From positions 434,001 through 498,000 of the forward strand of contig JAYWIR010000018.1 in the NCBI GenBank assembly GCA_036172245.1: a DNA stretch of 64,000 bases, read 5' to 3'. This DNA comes from Raillietiella orientalis. Taxonomy: Eukaryota. The position numbers were made by a program, and so were the translations under genes. The notes beneath the pieces were generated by a model. The model had not been told where the DNA came from, did not search any database, and was given only the letters and a program-made list of their open reading frames with translations. Below are positions 15,724-59,199 of this stretch, piece by piece (within the stretch, counting starts at the first letter, position 1; each line of letters opens with the position of its first letter).

Positions 15724-17165
15724 ATGGTTCCCTCACACAAGGGCTGTAATGAATTAAGCGTACGAGGCTACTTGATGCTGAAGGAGAAAGGGGTAAGCGA
15801 TTCAGTTAGTGGTGCAGAGTGTTAATGGTGCTGAGAAAACACGAATTCTTTTCATTACCACGGTGGAGCAAGAACCGGCCTGTCAAGTGGACAGCATGTG
15901 CTGCTAAGATTAGTAGAACGCAACCACTCTGCAAATGCAAGTGTAGCGAGTGCCTCGAAGAGAACGGAAGAGCTGAAAACACGGGCGAAAAATCGAAGAA
16001 ATCTTCTCTGCCAAATTATTCAGGAGTGTACGACGCGCGTCCCTACGTACATAACACCGCGCTCGCCTCCAAAAAGCGCTCTTCTCCAAAAAGGGATCAA
16101 GAGTTCAGACAGCTCAGCGAGCTTCTGAACCAGACACTTGCTGACATAGGTGTGTTTCTGCAGTATTACGAAGCAGTTTAAATAGTGTATTGGTCAGGGA
16201 TTGTCCAAGAATACAGACTTCACCGTATCGAACATGGGAAGACTCGCTCGTGCCCCCCCCCCCCCCCCCCCTTTGGAAAATGGATGGCACTTTCAAAACT
16301 GACGCCTCAGTGTGTTATCAATGGTTCTACTATTTATGGTCCTGTTGGATCCGAGAAATTAAAACTTATCCGCGTGTGGATGCATTAACGACTGGAAAAA
16401 GTGAAGCACTTCACGAACGCTTATTCGAAGATTTGGTGGGCTCGGCGAAGAAAATGGACTTCAACTGAGTCTCCAAACCATAATCACGGATCTGGAATTC
16501 GATGGCTATCCGGGCCTCGAGAAGTAAACTCGAAGGTGCCACCAGCAGCAGAGTGTTTTTTTTTTTTTTTCTTCCCCCCCCTATTCGGACCAGTGCATCT
16601 GCCGGAACATCCAGACGAGTTGATTGGCTACGCGATACGACGAAGACGAAAACTCCAATCTAAAAACGCGTCATTTGTCTGCATTGGCACTTCTTCGAGA
16701 CCGTGAAATTCCAGGATCTTCCGATGAACCAAAGCCTCATTTGCCTGAAGAAGCCAGCCAAGTTACTGACTTGCGAGAATGATGATGTGCACGGGAGGGT
16801 GGAAAGACACTAATGCAATGGTATTGCCGTTCTATCACTGGTTCTGTTTTCGCTAAATTTGTGGGGGCCGTACACAAGTGCACGAGGAATGGGCTTCCGC
16901 GAACCCAGGATAATGTGGAAGCGTGACACAGGAGATGGGACAGTTTAATAGGGAACGCTCGTGTCGGAGTATACCGAATGACAGAAGAATTTCAAGAACA
17001 GCACCGCATAGAAAATGAATGTGAACGCATTCTCGGAAAAGAAAAATACCCTGAAAGAAAAAAGCTATTCATCGGGAAGAAAGACTCCAAAATGTAGTAA
17101 ATCACCGTCAGAGTCGGCCAGCTTTTATGGACTACCTATGTACCATTGCCCATAATCTATCCCGG
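15724..17165 (+). mobile_element. Decayed Mutator-like (MULE) transposase with a FLYWCH-like N-terminus
   Basis: Ordered motifs: SHKGCNELSVRGYLMLKEK, WKMDGTFKT, ALTTGKSEALHERLFEDL, ECFF, NGLPRTQDNVEA*HRRWDSLIG...EEFQEQ, and terminal MDYLCTIAHNL. Stops, frameshifts and poly-C/poly-T expansions. Confidence 0.8.
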
Positions 17166-31900: not shown

Positions 31901-32949
31901 GTTCGAGGGTACACCGGGGCTGGACTCGATACTTGGAGGCCCCTGCGTCCTCAGAGGGCCTCGCACGACTGGTGAGATCGGTCACCACCGGAGAATTTAA
32001 TGGTCGTGAGGCGTCAGGATAAGACGGCCCGCCGGCAGAGTTTTGGCCGTGCTTCGTGAGCTGACGCCTCTGGTGCGCGGAATCTTCACACCGGTTCGGT
32101 CAACAGCCGAGGTGCGCGCCTCGTTCCTACCAGCAGAAGGAGCGCTCCTCCGCTCCCAAAGTGGCGACGGGAGTTGCCAAGCGGAAAGTGTAGAAAAACG
32201 TCAGTCAGCTGACACGCCGTCCCAAGAACCAGCAGTTTCTTCCTGAAATCTCACAGGACATCTGCGAGCTAGCTGGGTAGTCACGGTCACTGTTTCCTCA
32301 GAGAGAAGACAAAGAAAGACCACGAGATCTTCGGGACCACGAGATCTTCCTGGGGCTTCCCGTGACCTCCTTGAACGAGCAGCGAGCGTGGACGGAGCAC
32401 TGCGTTTTTCTCCGAGCTCGTGCCGTTCATCTACGCCCATGTCTGAATCATTTCATGTTTCCAGGTACCATAGCTTCGCGAGCGAGCAGGGGATCTACAA
32501 CTGGTCCTGCACCAAGACAACTATCCGCGGAAGCGGACGATCCGCGTCGGGGCAGTTCTTCGGGGACTGCAGATCAGGAAGGGCGTTAGTCCTTCCGAGC
32601 AGGCTGCTCGCATGGCGAGAACTCGCGCTGGCGCGCGCCGATGGGTGGTCCAATATCTTGCAGGATCCAGCGCCAGTCTTTGGAGCTTCAGCTCCAGCGT
32701 CAAGAAGCCGAGGCCACCATTCCGATGTGGAGCACACAAATCCTCCAAGTCTTCCTCACTTTCAAGAAGCATCCTCGAAATTTCTTCTCCCGTCGATCCT
32801 GGTGCATCCATCCTGCTTATTTTATTCCAGTCCTTGTCCACTGCCGGTCAGGCAGGGACGTGCGTTTCATTCCCGCTTCTCCGCAGGCCCAACAGGGTAA
32901 GGATTGTGGTCTACGGGACCGTTCCTTCCGTTTTTCACCATCTTGGTCT

Positions 32950-33648
32950 TCCGTGGTAAAGACATTTAAAGATGAAGGGGTCCTCCCTCCATGAAGAGGA
33001 CTGGACTCCCGGTGTTTCCAATGGCGCCGGCATTCATGCTGACCACCTCTCTTTGCCCTCCCCAGAAGGCTTTCCGCAGAGGGACTTCGGTCCTCTTTAT
33101 CACGCTTCTGGGTTGGGAGCGAACAGAAGGCAAGGGGCGAAGGATAGAGGCTGCAAACGTGTCCCACGTAACGGCCCGTTCCGGCAAGAGGAACTGGCCA
33201 TCCTGGAACGGGACGAGCGCGGACTCTGCCCTCTGAAGACAGCTCAATCCACGCCTCCTCCGGGGAAAAATCCCCCAACATCACGTCAAGGTACTTAAAG
33301 TGCCGAACCGCGGGGATCCCCAAGCGGTTCAGTCCGGCCGTCCAGCCCACACCGCACCAACTGAGCGGACGCCTTCGTCCTATTAGCGCAAGCGCACGTG
33401 CCGCAACGGGTCCACCCGAAGAATTCTTCGAGAGCTGCTGCCGGGACTGGCATGGGGAGGAGCAACGGAAGATCGTCAGCATAAGCTGGCACGGCAGGCG
33501 TGACAGGGCACGGGCTCGGCAGGGTTGTGAGAGCCTCCTCAGCACCGCCTCGAAATGGATGCTGAAGGGCAGGGAGGGGACTCGGGCTGTCACCCTGCCA
33601 TATGCACGCCGGTGTGAGGCGTGCCGGAGGGATGGAGAAACCCAGCAA
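32950..33648 (-). mobile_element. L1/Tx1-like LINE reverse transcriptase core, decayed
   Basis: IWQGDSPSPL, FSIHFEAVLRRL, PAYADDL, ANRTKA and FKYLDVMLG in the correct order across frameshifts. Confidence 0.85.
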
Positions 33649-34399: not shown

Positions 34400-36262
34400 C
34401 GTAGGGATGACACCAAGCCCCTCGTGATGGCGTTCGAGATGGCACCACCTTGTCACTGGCCTGCGAGACGCTGGCCGGGAATCCCCCAGACGCACGGAGG
34501 TCCTCCTCGAAGATCCGGTGGCGCCACGGAGGCATCCAGGATCCGGCACCCTGGCCCTGAAGGGAGGTGGCGAGCGGCTTCTGCTATTGCTCCAGTCCAG
34601 GACGCGGCTATCGGCGCCCGTTCCCTTCAGCCCCGAGGCAAATGGTACTGCGAGGGCACGGCGTCGCTGATGCGTGTCGCCTCACAACCGGCAGGCCATC
34701 CGAATGCGCTCGCGTCCCTAGGCGAGGCAGACCGCTGCTGCCCTGAGGAGGGACAGCGGTCGGCGCCCCCCTTGCCGCCACGCGGTCCGCAGCGACGCTC
34801 GGCGGCAGGGAGCGGTGGGCGAGGGCGCGACCCATCCCCGACGTAGGCGCAGTCCCCCTGGAGGAAGAGCAGAAAGGGGACGGGAAGAAGCGCCGGCCCC
34901 CAGCTGCAGAGCCGTCCTGCCCGCCGGAGAGAAACGGCGGTCGCTGGTTTCGGCGGGGCGCGGGGGTGACCTCGTCGTCGCAGGAGCGACGCAACTGGCG
35001 GACCGCGGAGGCGGCATCGGCGCGGCGCGGCGCCCCGCGCCGAAATGCGGTGAAAACACCTCCCGGCTGCTCCCCCCTTCGGCATGAAGGCGCGCCCGGA
35101 AGAGCTGCTGCCGCGGCGCTCTTTCGTGCGGGGCCGGCTTCCCCGATCGCCCGATCCCGCATGGCGTCAGGAAGACCGCGCGCGCCTCTGCCCGCGGCCA
35201 CCAGGAATGAGGTGCAGATGACCTTGTGCACGATAATGCAGTCAAGGGGGAGAAGGATGCCGTCTGCATCTCACGCAGACAGGCTGCCAGGGGAGCGGCG
35301 GATGAGACCTACCGGTGACCCTCCTCCCTTCCTTCCCCAGACCTGACCAGGGCGTCGCTACTTGGTCCAGTCGCCTCGCCGTCCACCCACCCCTGCTGTA
35401 CTCGGTGTCCACCTGCGTCTCCTCCGCGCCCTGCCGGCTGGTCGCTGCCGCTGCCCCCACCTTTCGCGCTGCGGCGGCGAGGCGGTTGCGGAGGTCGAAT
35501 CCGGCGCAACGTCCTTGAGGACGCCGCCATCTCGCGAGAGAGAAGAGTCCTGGGCTGGTCCCCGCGACCTCCGCCTAAGCGCCCACTGTGCTCTGCTCCG
35601 GGGCTGCAGTCCGCAGAGCGGCAGGGGGTCCAGACTGGACATTTGTCTTCGTCGACGCAGTCAAAGCGGGAAGTCACCCGTTTCCTTATCTTTCTCAGGA
35701 TGGCACGACCAGCCTGATCCTCCTCCTCGGCCGGCAACTCGCCCGTAGGGGGAACGCGGGGGAGACCTCAGCGAATGGAGCGCTGTTGGGGCGCCGAAGT
35801 CACCAGTCTTCCCAAGCGGAGCCGAATGTGCGCTCGAGCCAGCGTGCCGAGACCGAGCTGCACGACGCGGCTCAGAGCCACTGACCCTGACCTTCCCGGA
35901 AAGCGGTTCAGGGTCCTCCCGCGAGGCCTTTCTCGGAATATCTCCTATGCGCTTGCTAGCGTTCGCAGGGGTGGGGCAAACAAGAAGAACGAGGGAGGAG
36001 GAGAAGGCCCTGTCCAGGAAGAAGGCGCTACCGCCTTGGAACGAGCGCGGCGGCGCTTCCGCCTTCGTAGGCAAGAGGGCCGCAGGTCCCCCAACGGAAG
36101 GCGGAGGTGCGCGAGAGGCGTGCCCGTGGTGACCCCGGCAGAGGCGAAGGACGGGACCACCCGCCGATGACCGAGGAGATCGAGGGTCCGTGGGGCCATC
36201 AGCACCTCAACAGGCAGGAGCCGGTCTTCACGCCCCAGCTCAGTACGCGCGTGCACGTGCAT
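34400..36262 (-). mobile_element. L1/Tx1-like LINE ORF2 (APE endonuclease plus linker), decayed
   Basis: Ordered remnants: ELGREDRLLPVEVLM..LDLLG, LVLLVCPTP, GDF..DCV, GGWTARRLDQV, RSHPPL, RRGEQPGGVF, PRPGLE. Confidence 0.6.
34460..35334. repeat. Left arm of an 875-bp near-perfect inverted repeat
   Basis: Reverse complement of 36634-37508 (paired coordinates sum to 71968). ORF translations are identical in three frames. Three substitutions seen, at 34518, 34539 and 34556. Confidence 0.97.
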
Positions 36263-36633: not shown

Positions 36634-37508
36634 AAGGAAGGGAGGAGGGTCACCGGTAGGTCTCATCCGCCGCTCCCCTGGCAGCCTGTCTGCGTGAGAT
36701 GCAGACGGCATCCTTCTCCCCCTTGACTGCATTATCGTGCACAAGGTCATCTGCACCTCATTCCTGGTGGCCGCGGGCAGAGGCGCGCGCGGTCTTCCTG
36801 ACGCCATGCGGGATCGGGCGATCGGGGAAGCCGGCCCCGCACGAAAGAGCGCCGCGGCAGCAGCTCTTCCGGGCGCGCCTTCATGCCGAAGGGGGGAGCA
36901 GCCGGGAGGTGTTTTCACCGCATTTCGGCGCGGGGCGCCGCGCCGCGCCGATGCCGCCTCCGCGGTCCGCCAGTTGCGTCGCTCCTGCGACGACGAGGTC
37001 ACCCCCGCGCCCCGCCGAAACCAGCGACCGCCGTTTCTCTCCGGCGGGCAGGACGGCTCTGCAGCTGGGGGCCGGCGCTTCTTCCCGTCCCCTTTCTGCT
37101 CTTCCTCCAGGGGGACTGCGCCTACGTCGGGGATGGGTCGCGCCCTCGCCCACCGCTCCCTGCCGCCGAGCGTCGCTGCGGACCGCGTGGCGGCAAGGGG
37201 GGCGCCGACCGCTGTCCCTCCTCAGGGCAGCAGCGGTCTGCCTCGCCTAGGGACGCGAGCGCATTCGGATGGCCTGCCGGTTGTGAGGCGACACGCATCA
37301 GCGACGCCGTGCCCTCGCAGTACCATTTGCCTCGGGGCTGAAGGGAACGGGCGCCGATAGCCGCGTCCTGGACTGGAGCAATAGCAGAAGCCGCTCGCCA
37401 CCTCCCTTCAGCGCCAGGGTGCCGGATCTTGGATGCCTCCGTGGCGCCATCGGATCTTCGAGGAGGACCTCCGTGCGTCTGGGGGATTCCCGGCCAGCGT
37501 CTCGCAGG
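36634..37508. repeat. Right arm of the 875-bp near-perfect inverted repeat
   Basis: See left arm; the spacer 35335-36633 is 1299 bp. Confidence 0.97.
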
Positions 37509-39200: not shown

Positions 39201-39899
39201 AGGGCCATTTGCACGGACGGGATCGGCGGAATGCGCCGCTCCAGCTGGCGCTTCCAGACCCCATCCCGGACATGCGAGGCCCTCCGTCTCACCTCGGACA
39301 ACCCCTCCGCAGTGAATGAGGAAGAGGTGGTTCTCTTCGGAAACAACCATCAGCGGAGACCCCGGAGCTCAAGAACAGCAGCGCCCTCCCCCTGAAGCAG
39401 AAGGAGTCGGCCCTCTTGCCGCTGCGCTGGAGTCTTCCCGGCAACGCGCGCCGACACCACTGGATGCTGGGATTGTCGCAGGTGCGGGAAATGGGAATTC
39501 CCCCTCTCGCACCTGCTCGTAGACTGTGTTGCCCTCCGGACCCTATGGGAAACGTTTCGGAACGTCCCTCCGGATCCCAGTTGGCACCCCCAGGGAAGTT
39601 TTACCCCGTCTCTTTGTGCGGGATGCTCTGCAGCCCTACAGCGCTTTGCTTCATTCGCGGGATTGAGGAGGCCTGGAGCGAAGCCGACAGAGGGAGAGAC
39701 GGGAGGAGAGCCGTCCAGTCCTCAGTTCGCTTCCCGCGGATGGCGGCCAGGTGGCCTCACCTGGGACCTATTCGAACGGACCTAGTCGGCATCCTGCAGA
39801 GGATGCATACTCCCTCCAGTGGACAGTGGTCCCTTCCCGACCCTCTCAAAGATTTCATTTATCTTTATTTACCGCCTATTTTTATTTTCTTTTTGTTTT

Positions 39900-40900
39900 C
39901 CCCCTCCGCTGTCGAGGAGGGAGCCCCGCCGGTGACCCGGCAGGTCCACGGACGAGAGAAGTGTGGTAGTACCATCACGTGTGCTACCACCACAATTTGT
40001 GAGTTTCCTTTAAATTCTAAGAAACGCCCCGGTGTGACCGGGTGGAAATCGAAACAGCTCGCCACGCACCACCTGCCGCTCCTGACGCGCGCATGCGCTT
40101 CGAACGATCCGACTCGAAGGGGGAACGCGAGCGCAGAGGCATGCGTACACTCGGGGGAGGGAGGGGGATGACAGATGTCCACGTTCGGGGTTCTCTTCAG
40201 AGGAGGAAACGAAGAGCGATTCCTTCTGGGAGTCCCTCCCGTGAGAATATGGGAGAGGAAATTCCCTTCAGGGTTCCTCTCCCAAGCGCAAGAGGAACGG
40301 ACTCTCCTGTCCAGAGCTCTTCTTGGACTCATAGGGTGGTCCCTTCCGGATGCACCCTAGCTAGAAGAGTCATGCGCACCCTCGGAGGTGGCATGGACAG
40401 TGCCAAGGAGCTTCGTGAGCCCTCAGTAAGGAGATGGACGGTTTGTTAGTACTCCTGGCGAACCAAAAAGAAAAAAAGGGGGGGAGGAGAAAAGGGAAAG
40501 GGACGGGATGGGGCATCTCCCTCCAAACCAGAGGAACAGGTCTTCCTTGGAAGAGCTCCTGCAGGGCCGAGAGGAGTTCCGGGAAAGAAGGGAGCAGTGG
40601 AATCGCGTCTGAGAGCCGTTTCCTTGGTGCCCTCTTGAGTGAGAGCGCAGGCAGCGTTGGAGGGTCCGAAGGGGCGGACGCTTGCTCTTGGGGGCAACCA
40701 GGACTCCAAATGGGAAGAGGGGCACCGAGCCCCCTCTTTCCATCTCCCCTCCCCCAAGACGGATGGGCATCCGAGAGAGAGTCGAGCCCGTCCGCCGTTC
40801 CCAGAGCTGACGTTCCTTTCCCGTTCATGGGAGCGAGCGACTATCCGGTGGGACGATCCCATGGCTGGAGGTACCGCGGGTAACCCTGGAGACGATTTAT
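39900..40900 (-). mobile_element. LINE ORF2 C-terminal Cys/His region, two diverged tandem remnants
   Basis: LVWREMP...FSFWF...HCPCH and LSHILTGG...DICHP..PECTHA; related DNA at ~40140 and ~40371. Confidence 0.4.
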
Positions 40901-45950: not shown

Positions 45951-46268
45951 CGGGTTGGACCACGTCCGTTGCTACCCGACGAAGATTAAAGAGGAAATTG
46001 TTTTCCTATTTTTATTTGTTTCACATCAAAAAACAACGGGAAAAAAAGCAAAGCAAAGCAAAGCAACAAAAAGGCAGCGTAGCGCTTCCATGGCTATGCG
46101 AGAGTGCGACGCCGATAGGCCTACTCGACAGTCTTCTTTGAGGCGCACCCTTACGTGGGAAGATCGTTCATAGGGATACCCGCAGGTCCGTCCGTACACG
46201 TCCGTACAAAATACGGGCACATCCGCGCGATACGAGATCGGAATCGTTGGAAAAAAGAAAAAAAAACA

Positions 46269-46822
46269 TGCTCTTAAATTGGGGGCGTGTACCAACGAAA
46301 TCGCTGCTTGGGGATCTGAGGTTTATGGATCAATAAAAAGATCGGAAGAGTTCGGAATAAAAATGGAGGGAGTTTCGATATGCAGTCAATGGTGAAGCAT
46401 TCAAGAAATGCTGCCATCTAGCGGGTTGAATTTTTCACGGGGTGGGGGTGGGGGTGGGAAGGTGGGAAGACGAAAGGAACATCAAAGCTCATCAAGACCT
46501 TGGTGAAAGACTTGCAGGCAAAATGGCACTATAAAAGTTTTCGGCGATATGGAAGATCAGGAAACGTCTTCCGAGAGTGTTACTTTAACAACAGGAGTTT
46601 GAGCTAACTGGAAAACTGAAGCGGATGGAAGGTTACCATGGAGTGCACAGCATGCCGTGGTGTCAGAAAGATTATCAAAACCTTTGCTGATTGCAGGGTC
46701 TGGCCCGATCGGAATAGAATTCACAAGTTTTCATGGCGCTCTGGGGGTTAATGAAACGCTCACGGAGATGAAAGGCTCCAGTTTGCCGTTGGAAGATGCC
46801 GGGATTCCCAGCCTGGCGGCTC
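46269..46822 (+). pseudogene. lpdA: Bacterial dihydrolipoamide dehydrogenase pseudogene fragment, Wolbachia/Rickettsiales-like (putative nuclear endosymbiont transfer)
   Basis: Collinear frameshifted blocks: LNWGRVPTKSLL / SEVYGSIKRSEEFGIK / SFDMQSMVKHSRN / NIKAHQDLGERLAG / GTIKVFGDMEDQETSSESVTLTTGV*A / EADGRLPWSAQHAVVSERLSKPLLIAGSGPIGIEFTSFHGALGVNETLTEMKGSSLPLED. No introns; stop at 46600-46602. Confidence 0.88.
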
Positions 46823-47699
46823 TCAAAGAGGGGAACGGGAAAGTGCGGCAAGTTGGAAGACTTCATAGTGGTGCAGAAGAGGCACCGGCAGGGGCAGAGG
46901 GCCTGACAAGAGCCGGTTGTAGCGGTTGGCGTCCAGCGAGCGCGGGAGCGGGCTGGGATGGAATGATGTGATCGCTGGTGTCCAGGTCTCCCCCTTTCCC
47001 TTCCTTCCTTCGGGAGTCCTCCTCCGGGAACTAGCCGGGGGCGAGCAGAAAACCAGGGCGTTGGCTAGGAAACGCGCCAATGGTCTCTCCTCCCTCTCTG
47101 ATTTTCCCGTTCGACGATTCCATGTGATGCGACGGAGGATTCTCCCGTCTGGGCATCTCCGTGATTCTCTCGCATCTGCGTGTCATTAAGCAGCAGGGTA
47201 ATTTCGGAAAAATGCGACTCGAACGCGGAAATGACGTTTGAGTAAGGAGGATGGAAGAAGACGAAGGAAAAAATGAAAATGCAAAAACAAAGGGGAGGGG
47301 GGGAGATGAGGAAGAGGAGGAGGATGGAAGGAGGGGGGGGGAGCAGAACGGCGGCTCGAACATCCTTGCGTTTTCCCAGCTTGCTGGCGTCCCACCTCTG
47401 TACCGCGCTTCCTTTTCGTCTTCTGGTCGGTGCAACTACGCAGCACGAGTGCAGAGGAAGAGGAATCGAAGGGATCGTGCAGTGGTGCATATGAGGAGGA
47501 GGACAAAGGAAGAGGAAGAACAAGTTTCCTCCCCCCTTCTCCTCTTCCCTCTTATCCCGCCGCCGTCCGCAGCCACCGCTCCTCCCCGCTGTTTAACATG
47601 CAAATCAAACGATTAAGAAAAAACCGCAAGCAGAGGAAGCAGGAAGGACTCCGGGGCAGAAGCGGACGCGGGACGCGCGCCGCGATGCGCTGCTGGATC

Positions 47700-51299: not shown

Positions 51300-54200
51300 C
51301 TGAGAGAGAACGGGAGAGAGAGAGAGAGGAGGGGGGGGGACGGCGGCGACGGCGCCGGGATGCCTGCTTCGGGTATCCCGCGCTGTAAGCGCCATGGGGA
51401 GGGCGTCGCTGCCGAACCCTTCCCCTACTCCCTTCTCCTTCCTCCTCCCCTTTACCTCCTCATCTCACCCCTGGAGAGAAGAGTGCTTCGCCGCTGCCGC
51501 CGTGGCAGTGCCCTGTTGCTCTCGCGAGCATCCATCCCTGGCGGCCGCCCACAGCTAGAATGGATGCCAGGTGGAAGGACTTCCCTCACACGATGCACGG
51601 CGGCAGGGAGGGAAGGAGGGAGAGAAAACGGTGGTCGAGGGTTAGAGAAGGAATGGGGCGGAGAAGGCAGACGGTGCCGCGTGCCAGGCGCTCCTGGAGC
51701 ACGAAACAGCCACGCTCGCCTCGTAGCTGTTGCCACCCAAGATACAAAGCAGTACACTCCTCCCTCTCCTCCGGAACGCCCGCTCGCCCCAGCCTTGGAC
51801 GGACGTGCTCTACTTCGATGACGATGAGGCCTTTCCCAGGCAGAGCTCGGGACGATGCGATTCTTCCTGCACGAGGGGGACCCTTGGGAACGAGGAGTCC
51901 TCGATCTCCTTCTCTGCGGGCAGAGACCCGGCTTCAGGTCACGCATGGTGGTACGCTGCTCTACGCCACCTATGGCTTTCTTTTCTTTCCTTCCCATCGG
52001 ATGGGACACAGGAGTCTCCAAGCTGCGACTCGGCAGATGGGGAGGAATCTTCCGGGAGGAGGAGCAAGCCCGTCTTCCCTCCTCTTCGAGGGTCCCCATG
52101 GGCTGCAGCCCCGCATGCGGATGAAGGTAGGGTGGAAACAGAAGGGCGGCGGTGAGGACGGCGGCAAGCGCCGAAGGGAGGGGAAGGGCACCTGGACGGA
52201 TGGGAATAAAGGGGAGCCGTCTCGTCCTTACGAAGCAGAAGAGCAAGTCCCGGAACGTCTTCCCGCGTCCTGCTTCTCGGGGTGCTCGAGAGAAGGGAAG
52301 GGTAAAAGAAAGGGGGACGAGGGAGAGTGGCCGCATCCGGTGCGAGAGCAAGTGCTTCTGATTCAGGCAGGAGTCCTCCTTTTTCGGGCTGTCTTCCGGG
52401 GAAAGACAATGCGCCACCGTTCCCGGAGGATGTCGGGGAAGGGATGCTTCCGGGCGCCTGCGCGAGCGCAGTGAGCCTCCCCCCACGGTTCCTGGCAGCA
52501 GAGGGCCTTCTGCCCGACCGTGTCCCGTTCCGGGTCACAGATGCGGCTGGGGGGGAGGCTTCCCTTCGCGTCGCTGCGACCGGCGCACTCGCGGCGGCTG
52601 TCGCCACGGAAACCGCCGCAGTGAGTGCCGAGGACGGCTGGCGTGCCGGAGGTTCCGCTGAGGCGCGCCGCCCGCCGCTGCCCCCGGCTCCCCCCTGGTG
52701 AGAAACGGTACCTCCGTATCCCGCCCCCACCTTCCTCCTTCTTGTGCTGCGAGTGCCCACGATAGGGGGAATGGCAACCCCGCTGCGCCCACCGTCCCCA
52801 CCCTGAGACGGCCATGTCGGAAGGAGGGTGGGCGGCGAACAGCTCCTCTCCAGAAGAAGCCAAAGAAGGGCTGACCACGCCCTCCGTCCTGGCGACGTCG
52901 GTCCTTCTCGCTGCCACCACGTTGGTCACCATCGTAGGTGAGTGAGAGTCAAGAAAGGGGCAGTCCTTCCCATGGCCTACAATTTGGGTTCCCATTTCAT
53001 CCCAGAGAGACCGCGTTCCTACCCTCCTTTTTCGGGAGACGGCGGGAGTCGCGCGTTCTCCCTCTCATTCACTCTGGAATCCCTCTAGTGGGCAGGGAGA
53101 AGCAGGAAGCTGACGATCCTGGAGAAGGCGCGAGTCGGGAGCGGCCCAACTTCTCGTCCTTCCCCCTCGAGAGGCGGGAGTCCCTCCTTCCTCCTCGATG
53201 GGAGAAGGGTAGCTTCCCCACGGAAAGGAGGGAGTCATCTCACAGCCTCCAGAACGGGCGGTCTTGCCCCTCTTTGCTGCTTTTCCTGCACCTCCCCTGT
53301 CGGCGAGACGACCCGGTGGTTCCTAGGGGCAGTCTCTTCGCATCCCCTCCTCCCCGAGGGAACAGGGAGGGTAATCGAGGGCAAAACGAAAGCGAGTAGG
53401 TGATCCAGATCGCTGCTCCCACCGCATCAGTGATCCGGGCTCCTCTGCTCTTGCCGTGCCTCGAGGTAGCCCACTGCACCTTGCGCGACCTTCGGGACGA
53501 ACGGTCTCCCGCGTGTTTTTTCCCGCGTTCTCCTGCCATTAAGATTTCCGGTTTCGGCTCGTGCAGTGGGCTAACAGGAATTTCGGAGAGGGGGGGGAGG
53601 TGGGACAGGCGGGTGGGAATGGGGTGGAAGGAACTTCCCATCCGCTCTCCTCTCATCTGGGTGGGTTGATGGCGCGCGCGCCCGCCTCCAGTCTCCGCAT
53701 TCTTTACCCACCCGAGAAGCCGAGAGCTCCCGGCAGCCGCCTACGATGAGGCCGACGGAACTTCCCGGAAGTCTTCCTGTCGGGATAGATGCCGGTTTCG
53801 GCAGAGAGCGGCGGGAGGAGCCTCGTGATTCGATGCACTCGTGGCGGTTACCGTCTGGGGGGTCACTGTCGCGGAGTGGTGGCCCAGCAGCAGGCATTTC
53901 AGGAGCCCGCAGTCGGGTTGATCCAAGGACCTGAGAGTTGAATGCAAAAGAGCACGAAAGTTGGTACCTTGGTGATCCTCAATCCTCTCGCGGGATTCAC
54001 GACCACCGAGACGGTCGATTTCTTCAGCAACTGGCGGGTAGCGGGTCTTCCTTCGAGCCTTCTTTGCTCGGCGTTCCAAAAACGCTGGCCTCTTTCACGT
54101 CCGAGTCGGTACCGCAAGCAGTCCGGCCGAATTCCGGCGAGGGTAGGCGGAAGTGACCCGCTCTGGGGTTAGGACTTCGTCGCCCATCTGCAGGTTTCTC

Positions 54201-58000: not shown

Positions 58001-59199
58001 GAAGCATGCACGCACGCGGCAGTCCATGCATTTGCTTAGGCAGATTTTGGCATGCTTCCGTGAGGGGCAAGGAAGGATTCAGCGGCCCCGTGCATCCCCT
58101 TCCCCCTCACTTCCTCCGTGCCCTTCCACCTGCGTCCGTGGGTTCTTACGGAAGGTGCACATCCCTTCTCGCAAACCGCGGGCACACCAGTGGATCGATG
58201 GTGCAGAGCGTTACCAAAATGCCACGGGATCAGCGATTCCTTGAGAAACGAGGCGATGCACTCAAAGCAAAAGCGGCGTGTCCGCGTGCACACGCAGCCG
58301 AGGACAAGCAAACCTCGCCTAATCTGCTCTTGAGCTGTACGCTGGCGACGAGGTGGTCACCAGCGTGCAGTGGCCGTTATCAACCTCGTGAAAACAAATC
58401 TTCCTTACTTCAAGAAGCTCACCTTGTGTATTAGCATTCGCTCGGATTGGCTTTTCCGCTTTCTCATTCGTGCGTGCAGGAAGCGAAGAAAAATCGGGTT
58501 TGTATGCAGTGCAGGAAACGGGGAATCCCGTCGGCCGTAGTTTTCCAACGCAGTAAGAAGTCCGACCTCGTCACAGCTCGAATGATCCCAGATTTCGAAC
58601 GGTCTTCCGAACCCGTAGGCTGCCATCTCTTCTGTGAACTCCGTCACAGCGCCCGGCTGGGTGGAACCACAGGTTGCGGGGGATGGTGCGCCCCCCCCTT
58701 CGCACGCCAAGAACGAACTCGGATGGACTTCCCTCGCACGAATTCCAGGCCCGAATCCAGGAGCGGGGAGCCGGCAAAGGCCGCGGAGACAATGGAGACG
58801 CGCGCAACAATGGAACGGTTGGCGTATCCAGGAGCCCGTTGCTGAGCAGCCGCGCCATTGTTCTTGCTTGAATTGCATTTTACCAACGAAGGCCGTGCCC
58901 GCTGGATTTAATGACCCGAGTACATGGCTGCGGTTCCTCAGATTAATGGAGAAAAACACACGCGACGAATCATAATAAGAGATGCATTATTTAATTAAAT
59001 GTGATCTCATAAACTCCCGCGTTCGCTACCTCGTATAATATATTTGTGGTGCATGCGCTCTTTCATGCTTCCGATTCCCGGACCGGTTTGCTTTCTTTCC
59101 AGAAGCGAAACCACGAAATGAAGTTTCCATCAAGTTATTTGCTTCCGGAGTATGCATACACGTGTGCGCGCACACACGTGTATACGCGGAGATGCACTC

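Follow-up and report, generated by a model that had tools for sequence, protein, structure and literature searches.

A decayed Wolbachia lpdA fragment in a host contig, very probably a nuclear Wolbachia transfer

Nuclear Wolbachia transfers (NUWTs) are a well-described class of DNA leakage from symbiont to host. In filarial nematodes, PMC12693587 describes short, dispersed, and neutrally decaying pieces that number in the hundreds per genome, with 483 to 653 NUWT regions in Onchocerca and Dirofilaria and a mean length of 434 bases in Onchocerca. Their mixed supergroup origins are treated in the same text as a record of superinfection and replacement (PMC12693587). In Dictyocaulus viviparus, PMC4046930 describes inactivated Wolbachia fragments that were co-assembled with the host and checked by reads and PCR, with an average identity of 84.5% to filarial Wolbachia and no evident live infection. 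Here we describe a fragment of the Wolbachia gene lpdA in a 64-kb window, by which we mean the whole stretch of host DNA analyzed. It is very probably an ordinary, nonfunctional NUWT with junctions known from the assembly alone, a further example of the class and probably one of several hundred in its genome. Like the filarial NUWTs, it belongs to a set of short, dispersed, and decaying pieces, but the host is an arthropod and probably not an insect, the donor falls with support in no sampled supergroup, and the number of regions (about 440) is extrapolated from four tiles of a Wolbachia genome. Like the D. viviparus fragments, the pieces are inactivated and assembled together with host DNA, but they are more divergent (66 to 83% identity for matches of at least 200 bases) and are known from the assembly alone.

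The fragment occupies positions 46243 to 46818 of the window on the plus strand. Its 576 bases, or about 189 codons, correspond to codons ~30 to 218 of the ~461 in lpdA; neither the start nor any of the C-terminal half is present, and no long open frame is left. A profile built from 19 Wolbachia lpdA genes identified it with nhmmer as the sole match in the 64 kb (E = 4e-87; model positions 88 to 654 of 1380), and blastn aligned it to locus L096 (E = 4e-74). Identity to Wolbachia reached 75.2% across 431 well-aligned columns. This start lies 26 bases 5' of the one given in the initial annotation (46269), whose description of about 180 collinear codons of decayed lpdA with frameshifts, a stop, and the motif LNWGRVP was otherwise borne out. 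Relative to the closest Wolbachia gene, the fragment carries 13 indels, 9 of them shifting the frame, and one TGA stop, and it has lost the second redox cysteine. Specifically, the remnant of the redox-active motif, LNWGRVP (46274 to 46294, plus strand), has an arginine codon in place of the second cysteine codon and a 2-base insertion immediately 5' of it, while the in-frame TGA (46600 to 46602, plus strand) adjoins an 8-base deletion. A G-rich tract at 46439 to 46466 (plus strand), of a type common in the flanking host DNA, is without a Wolbachia counterpart, and the indels around it are alignment dependent.

Downstream of the stop, a stop-free part (46603 to 46845) matches dihydrolipoyl dehydrogenases in the PDB. 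When 150 open frames were scanned with Pfam, it alone gave a credible match (Pyr_redox, E = 6e-4); the set was taken from 152 frames of at least 128 residues with 3 dropped and the stop-free lpdA frame added. This part includes the remnant of the NAD-binding motif, GSGPIGIEF (46696 to 46722, plus strand), which is supported by sequence, PDB, and Pfam matches. A possible decayed continuation of the gene (46819 to 46935, plus strand) was not significant in a shuffle test (P = 0.07), and neither was an extension at the 5' end (P = 0.29). The intact reading frame with catalytic residues that marks a functional transferred gene was absent from the fragment. Judged by its sequence, the fragment is dead, not an enzyme, and without function today.

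Comparisons at several levels identified Wolbachia as the closest source. The stop-free piece was compared with 400 genomes from the order, of which 371 gave a match and one more was not scored. The top 19 genomes, at 62 to 74 bits, all belonged to Wolbachia and made up 19 of the 20 sampled genomes lying in one genus. The next genome scored 60 bits, and the 19 sampled genomes from the same family outside Wolbachia scored at most 55. All 10 of the top matches whose names were checked are annotated as Wolbachia dihydrolipoyl dehydrogenase. With blastn, E values ranged from 4e-74 to 4e-25 for 19 Wolbachia loci, and the best of 91 other loci reached 5e-10. Protein identity over 140 residues was 49 to 64% to 15 Wolbachia proteins, 36 to 43% to 20 other alphaproteobacterial proteins, and 22 to 29% to six eukaryotic proteins. 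The fragment is thus collinear with Wolbachia LpdA (E3, the 461-residue paralogue) and 56 to 64% identical to 14 of the 15 proteins (49% to the most divergent), but it differs from LpdA in being truncated, frameshifted, interrupted by a stop, and devoid of the catalytic cysteine. A word-based protein search with the fragment returned one match, from outside Wolbachia, and identity was at most 53% among the 150 matches listed from a 50%-cluster library.

Phylogenetic placement pointed in the same direction. As outgroups we used 80 other bacterial loci, found in named genomes by means of the non-Wolbachia protein from the word-based search. In the protein tree, the fragment nested inside Wolbachia with support of 100/100, although it had been aligned with the Wolbachia profile before tree building, which favors that placement. 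A tree joining the fragment to eukaryotes was rejected (approximately unbiased [AU] test, P = 5e-5), whereas a tree constrained to make the fragment basal to the other alphaproteobacteria was 27 log units worse but escaped formal rejection (AU P = 0.06, fast search). The initial annotation had called for such a phylogeny and had proposed an old lateral transfer from Wolbachia, which is the best reading of these data, as both the best matches and the tree placement are Wolbachia and not eukaryotic or other bacterial. The motifs that it had given as characteristic of Wolbachia LpdA hold up: among 19 Wolbachia proteins, SEVYRLIKRSEEFGIK occurs in 1 and EADGDLIWNAQHAM in 4, and both are absent from 91 other alphaproteobacterial proteins. 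WNAQHA was found in 15 of the 19 and in none of the 91. The proposed alphaproteobacterial signature, GSGAIGIEFASFY, was present in 13 of the 19 Wolbachia proteins and in 72 of the 91 others; it is not specific to Wolbachia.

The donor differs in sequence from the sampled Wolbachia strains and is not assignable to a sampled supergroup. Nucleotide identity to Wolbachia ranged from 65 to 75% over the 431 well-aligned columns (68% in a looser alignment) and was highest for A-type strains, a label taken from cluster names. A-type genomes also led among 60 Wolbachia species genomes, 56 of which were matched, none at more than 70% identity over the full length. Diagnostic sites ran 16:10 against supergroup B and 23:13 against the clade of loci L091, L097, and L105, neither significantly; from its tree position and from genome sizes, we take this clade to be probably supergroup F. 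With the backbone fixed, the fragment was placed best on the basal branch of the genus or on the A stem, and 20 of the 35 branches escaped rejection. The supergroup differed, at low support, among the GTR, purine/pyrimidine-coded, and protein trees, the last of which placed the fragment elsewhere, and weakly.

Among 187 sites that are invariant in all 19 Wolbachia, 30 (16%) were changed in the fragment, by 26 transitions and 4 transversions. The dN of the fragment was 0.23, versus 0.08 to 0.15 between Wolbachia strains. When a sampled strain was made to decay neutrally in simulation, at the rates seen at those sites, the nonsynonymous differences were roughly explained (0.15 simulated versus 0.20 to 0.21 observed). 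For synonymous divergence, simulation predicted a pS of 0.24 to 0.25, versus 0.43 to 0.51 observed (P ≤ 0.001), with a dN/dS of 0.2 to 0.4. Because synonymous divergence exceeds what neutral decay of a sampled strain would produce, we infer that the fragment came from a Wolbachia that was unsampled or ancestral and that ~0.18 substitutions per site of decay followed.

The fragment is single copy in the 210-Mb, 491-contig host assembly, and its neighbors on contig C18 include high-copy host repeats. A repeat at ~39360 to 40480, 6 kb away, recurs on many contigs (39 of 3,942 candidates were scored); it is unclassified, with one copy 98% identical on the same contig and most copies at 71 to 76%. 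The rest of the 64-kb window had no match to the 1.2 Mb of Wolbachia genome G266. One weak candidate, at 58619 to 58762, resembled a Wolbachia frame read in antisense (E = 6e-5) and was rejected when neither the sense strand nor a DNA comparison upheld it. Other features of the window include an A/T-rich island of 91 bases (45985 to 46075; 30% G+C), which lies 170 bases upstream of the fragment and is unmatched in the Wolbachia DNA compared, and an inverted duplication of 875 bases (34460 to 35334 and 36634 to 37508) with arms 1.3 kb apart and 99.7% identical, either recent or an assembly artifact. A short decayed stretch at ~16790 to 17070 (plus strand) resembles the C terminus of a MULE-type transposase. 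The stretch at 52814 to 52937 (plus strand), a hydrophobic helix followed by a GTGAGT donor, probably represents the initial coding exon of a G-protein-coupled receptor; if the exon is real, the fossil precedes a host gene by ~6 kb.

The G+C content of the fragment (46.5%) falls between that of Wolbachia (34%) and that of its flanks (60 to 68%). Measured in 1-kb steps across the window, G+C lies between 31 and 68%, with a plateau of 55 to 68% over most of 27 to 58 kb. At the invariant sites, 23 of 123 A/T positions had changed to G/C, versus 4 of 64 G/C positions to A/T (P = 0.03); a looser alignment gave drift in the same direction that was not significant (P = 0.07 to 0.14). This drift toward G+C-rich surroundings argues for real integration. 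In a second fossil, on contig C40, which has 37% G+C in 41% flanks, the balance was the opposite (72:31 versus 179:162, P = 0.002), in a comparison that involves different alignment methods and includes divergence from before the transfer.

Many further decayed Wolbachia pieces were found elsewhere in the assembly by the genome-wide search suggested in the initial annotation, run here with 4 of 60 tiles. The four 20-kb tiles of G266 were hand-chosen to cover lpdA, single-copy DNA, 16S, and duplicated DNA, and they gave 44, 20, 27, and 15 matches, respectively, for a total of 106. At E ≤ 1e-10, there were 79 of these matches, which form 58 regions on 33 contigs with a median length of 212 bases. 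The 43 matches of at least 200 bases were 66 to 83% identical to Wolbachia, with none above 83%; they cluster at 66 to 75%, with a smaller group at 77 to 83%, perhaps from two waves of insertion. Regions derived from single-copy Wolbachia DNA numbered 24 on 19 contigs, and crude scaling gives ~440 genome-wide. There are thus probably several hundred Wolbachia fossils in the genome, a figure extrapolated from four tiles and not a census. The 16S tile recovered no intact 16S, only a 103-base match of 74% identity, and there was no near-identical long match in the 4 of 60 tiles, although symbiont contigs are often removed from assemblies. A small control, the 3.2-kb locus of a non-Wolbachia relative, had no match.

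The longest pieces are a collinear 3-kb fossil (C10:168431-171499; 66 to 69% identity), which contains an internal inverted piece of 156 bases, and the fossil on C40. At C14:1926348-1927670, two pieces from Wolbachia loci ~9 kb apart now lie 330 bases apart, as in a patchwork insert. From the same Wolbachia lpdA region as the window fragment, the start is found at C15:1820676-1820750 (85%) and the end at C2:4802889-4803429 (70%), either as separate insertions or as scattered parts of a larger one.

The second fossil named above (C40, ~170855 to 172296; L004:590-2031) comprises two adjacent genes in Wolbachia order over 1.44 kb, at 71 to 74% identity. One is a second lpdA paralogue; the other we take to be a beta-propeller-like outer-membrane gene. 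The C40 fossil was matched by 59 of 60 Wolbachia genomes and by 9 of 38 other genomes of the family. Its highest scores came from the G354/G287/G280 clade (805 to 887 bits, with relatives up to 923), while A-type genomes scored 689 to 734. For the window fragment, the ranks were nearly the reverse (G212, 216 bits; G266, 203; G287, 139; G354, 104; G280, 75). Because the C40 fossil ranks a different Wolbachia clade first, these data suggest two or more donor Wolbachia lineages, on the evidence of BLAST ranks and not of a tree.

A transfer from Wolbachia has to be weighed against two readings under which no such transfer took place. One is that the fragment is a processed pseudogene of the host mitochondrial dihydrolipoamide dehydrogenase (DLD), or organelle-derived DNA. 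It is intronless and homologous to the host gene, but that gene, which is intact on contig C26 with nine GT-AG introns and 468 codons in frame, is only 28% identical to the fragment over the same 140 residues for which Wolbachia proteins reach 64%. With the eukaryotic tree rejected and Wolbachia-only motifs present, we regard this as the least probable explanation, to the point of being negligible. The other is an assembly chimera or contamination, in which co-sequenced Wolbachia reads were stitched into a host contig. The junctions are indeed supported by the assembly alone, and the fragment is single copy. Yet an essential gene with a stop and nine frameshifts cannot stem from a live bacterium, the best identity to any of the 60 Wolbachia species genomes is 70%, and the four tiles gave neither a long near-identical match nor an intact 16S. 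Drift toward the local host composition and dozens of similar pieces on large contigs also stand against a chimera, which is highly improbable. The initial annotation had cited decay and host flanks against contamination, and the nine frameshifts and stop, the drift in G+C, and the other pieces on large contigs reinforce that argument.

Two further readings accept a Wolbachia source but differ on how the fragment arrived or what it once did. Domestication, in which the gene worked under purifying selection in the host before it died, would account for a synonymous divergence above the neutral prediction and for the low dN/dS. However, an unsampled or ancestral donor gives the same excess, the near-basal position of the fragment in the genus favors such a donor, and the C40 fossil has the same codon pattern. 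Furthermore, the fragment is half a gene without introns or promoter evidence in a host that has its own enzyme, and we give domestication hardly any weight. LINE-mediated retroposition of a Wolbachia mRNA would fit a fragment that lies within one gene, with a decayed LINE-like motif pair 12.8 kb away. The initial annotation had placed the fragment in a "LINE graveyard," for which that upstream pair, without Pfam support, is the one sign seen. It consists of decayed reverse-transcriptase motifs recognized by eye at 32700 to 33500 (minus strand; YADD at 33483 and GGLG at 32730). A typical retrocopy shows the reverse of the pattern observed here, with the 3' end kept and a poly(A). Because the 3' half of the gene is missing and no poly(A) stands at the end of the fragment, retroposition is very unlikely, though slightly less so than the other alternatives. 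The ends of the fragment are too far decayed for exact placement. The sister fossils also speak against retroposition, as they include multigene blocks, insertion sequences, and neighboring pieces from distant Wolbachia loci.

Since the sister fossils span several adjacent genes, capture at the DNA level is indicated. In the scenario that we favor, an ordinary nuclear transfer, a Wolbachia carried in the ancestral host germ line would have released DNA, and a piece of it would have joined the chromosome, most likely as filler in double-strand-break repair. The inserted piece may never have had a complete frame, or may soon have lost it, and would have decayed without selection toward the local G+C, while the host presumably relies on its own intron-containing enzyme. 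At least one past infection, and probably at least two, would have left the fossils.

The affinity of the host was approached through its own genes. In a DLD tree, the long branch of the host sequence belonged to neither the arthropod nor the nematode clade and joined rotifers weakly (92/73). We read this position as long-branch noise because the host DNA contains 14 arthropod-type cuticle chitin-binding domains above cutoff, and because the named best matches of a thioredoxin reductase exon were Daphnia, Artemia, Caligus, and two orthopterans (62 to 66%), although the top-scoring match was a fish sequence at 49%. Searches of the host for nematode cuticle collagen and for insect odorant-binding families, run without positive controls, gave no match. 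Our best guess for the host is a non-insect pancrustacean; among the other hosts considered, a nematode is unsupported and a tongue worm would be a further candidate. The host thioredoxin reductase (L005; C20, ~762000 to 763000) ends in Gly-Cys-TGA-Gly-stop, as in the selenocysteine type.

The fragment is a record of a Wolbachia, unlike the sampled strains, that was once in the germ line of the host lineage. Together with the C40 fossil, it indicates that more than one Wolbachia probably infected this lineage, and the genome-wide fossil record is more informative than the single lpdA piece. If the host is an ostracod or a similar crustacean, the fossils bear on an unsettled part of the Wolbachia host range. 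The occurrence of Wolbachia in ostracods is disputed (PMC3335409, PMC6296333, and PMC7998251): two infected species are cited in the first, and negative screens are reported and cited in the second. In the accessible literature outside subscription journals, we found no paper on Wolbachia fossils in an ostracod-like crustacean genome. We tentatively raise the possibility, which we hold to be rather doubtful in its full form, that the host is a nonmalacostracan crustacean carrying several hundred fossils from at least two lineages, one near the L091/L097/L105 clade and another, the donor of this fragment, that branches close to the root of the genus and is missing from the 60 species genomes. 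If this is true, such fossils could explain the conflicting results of PCR screens. Having begun from one starting composition, they would also serve as a gauge of local G+C-biased substitution in a genome whose G+C content spans 31 to 68%.
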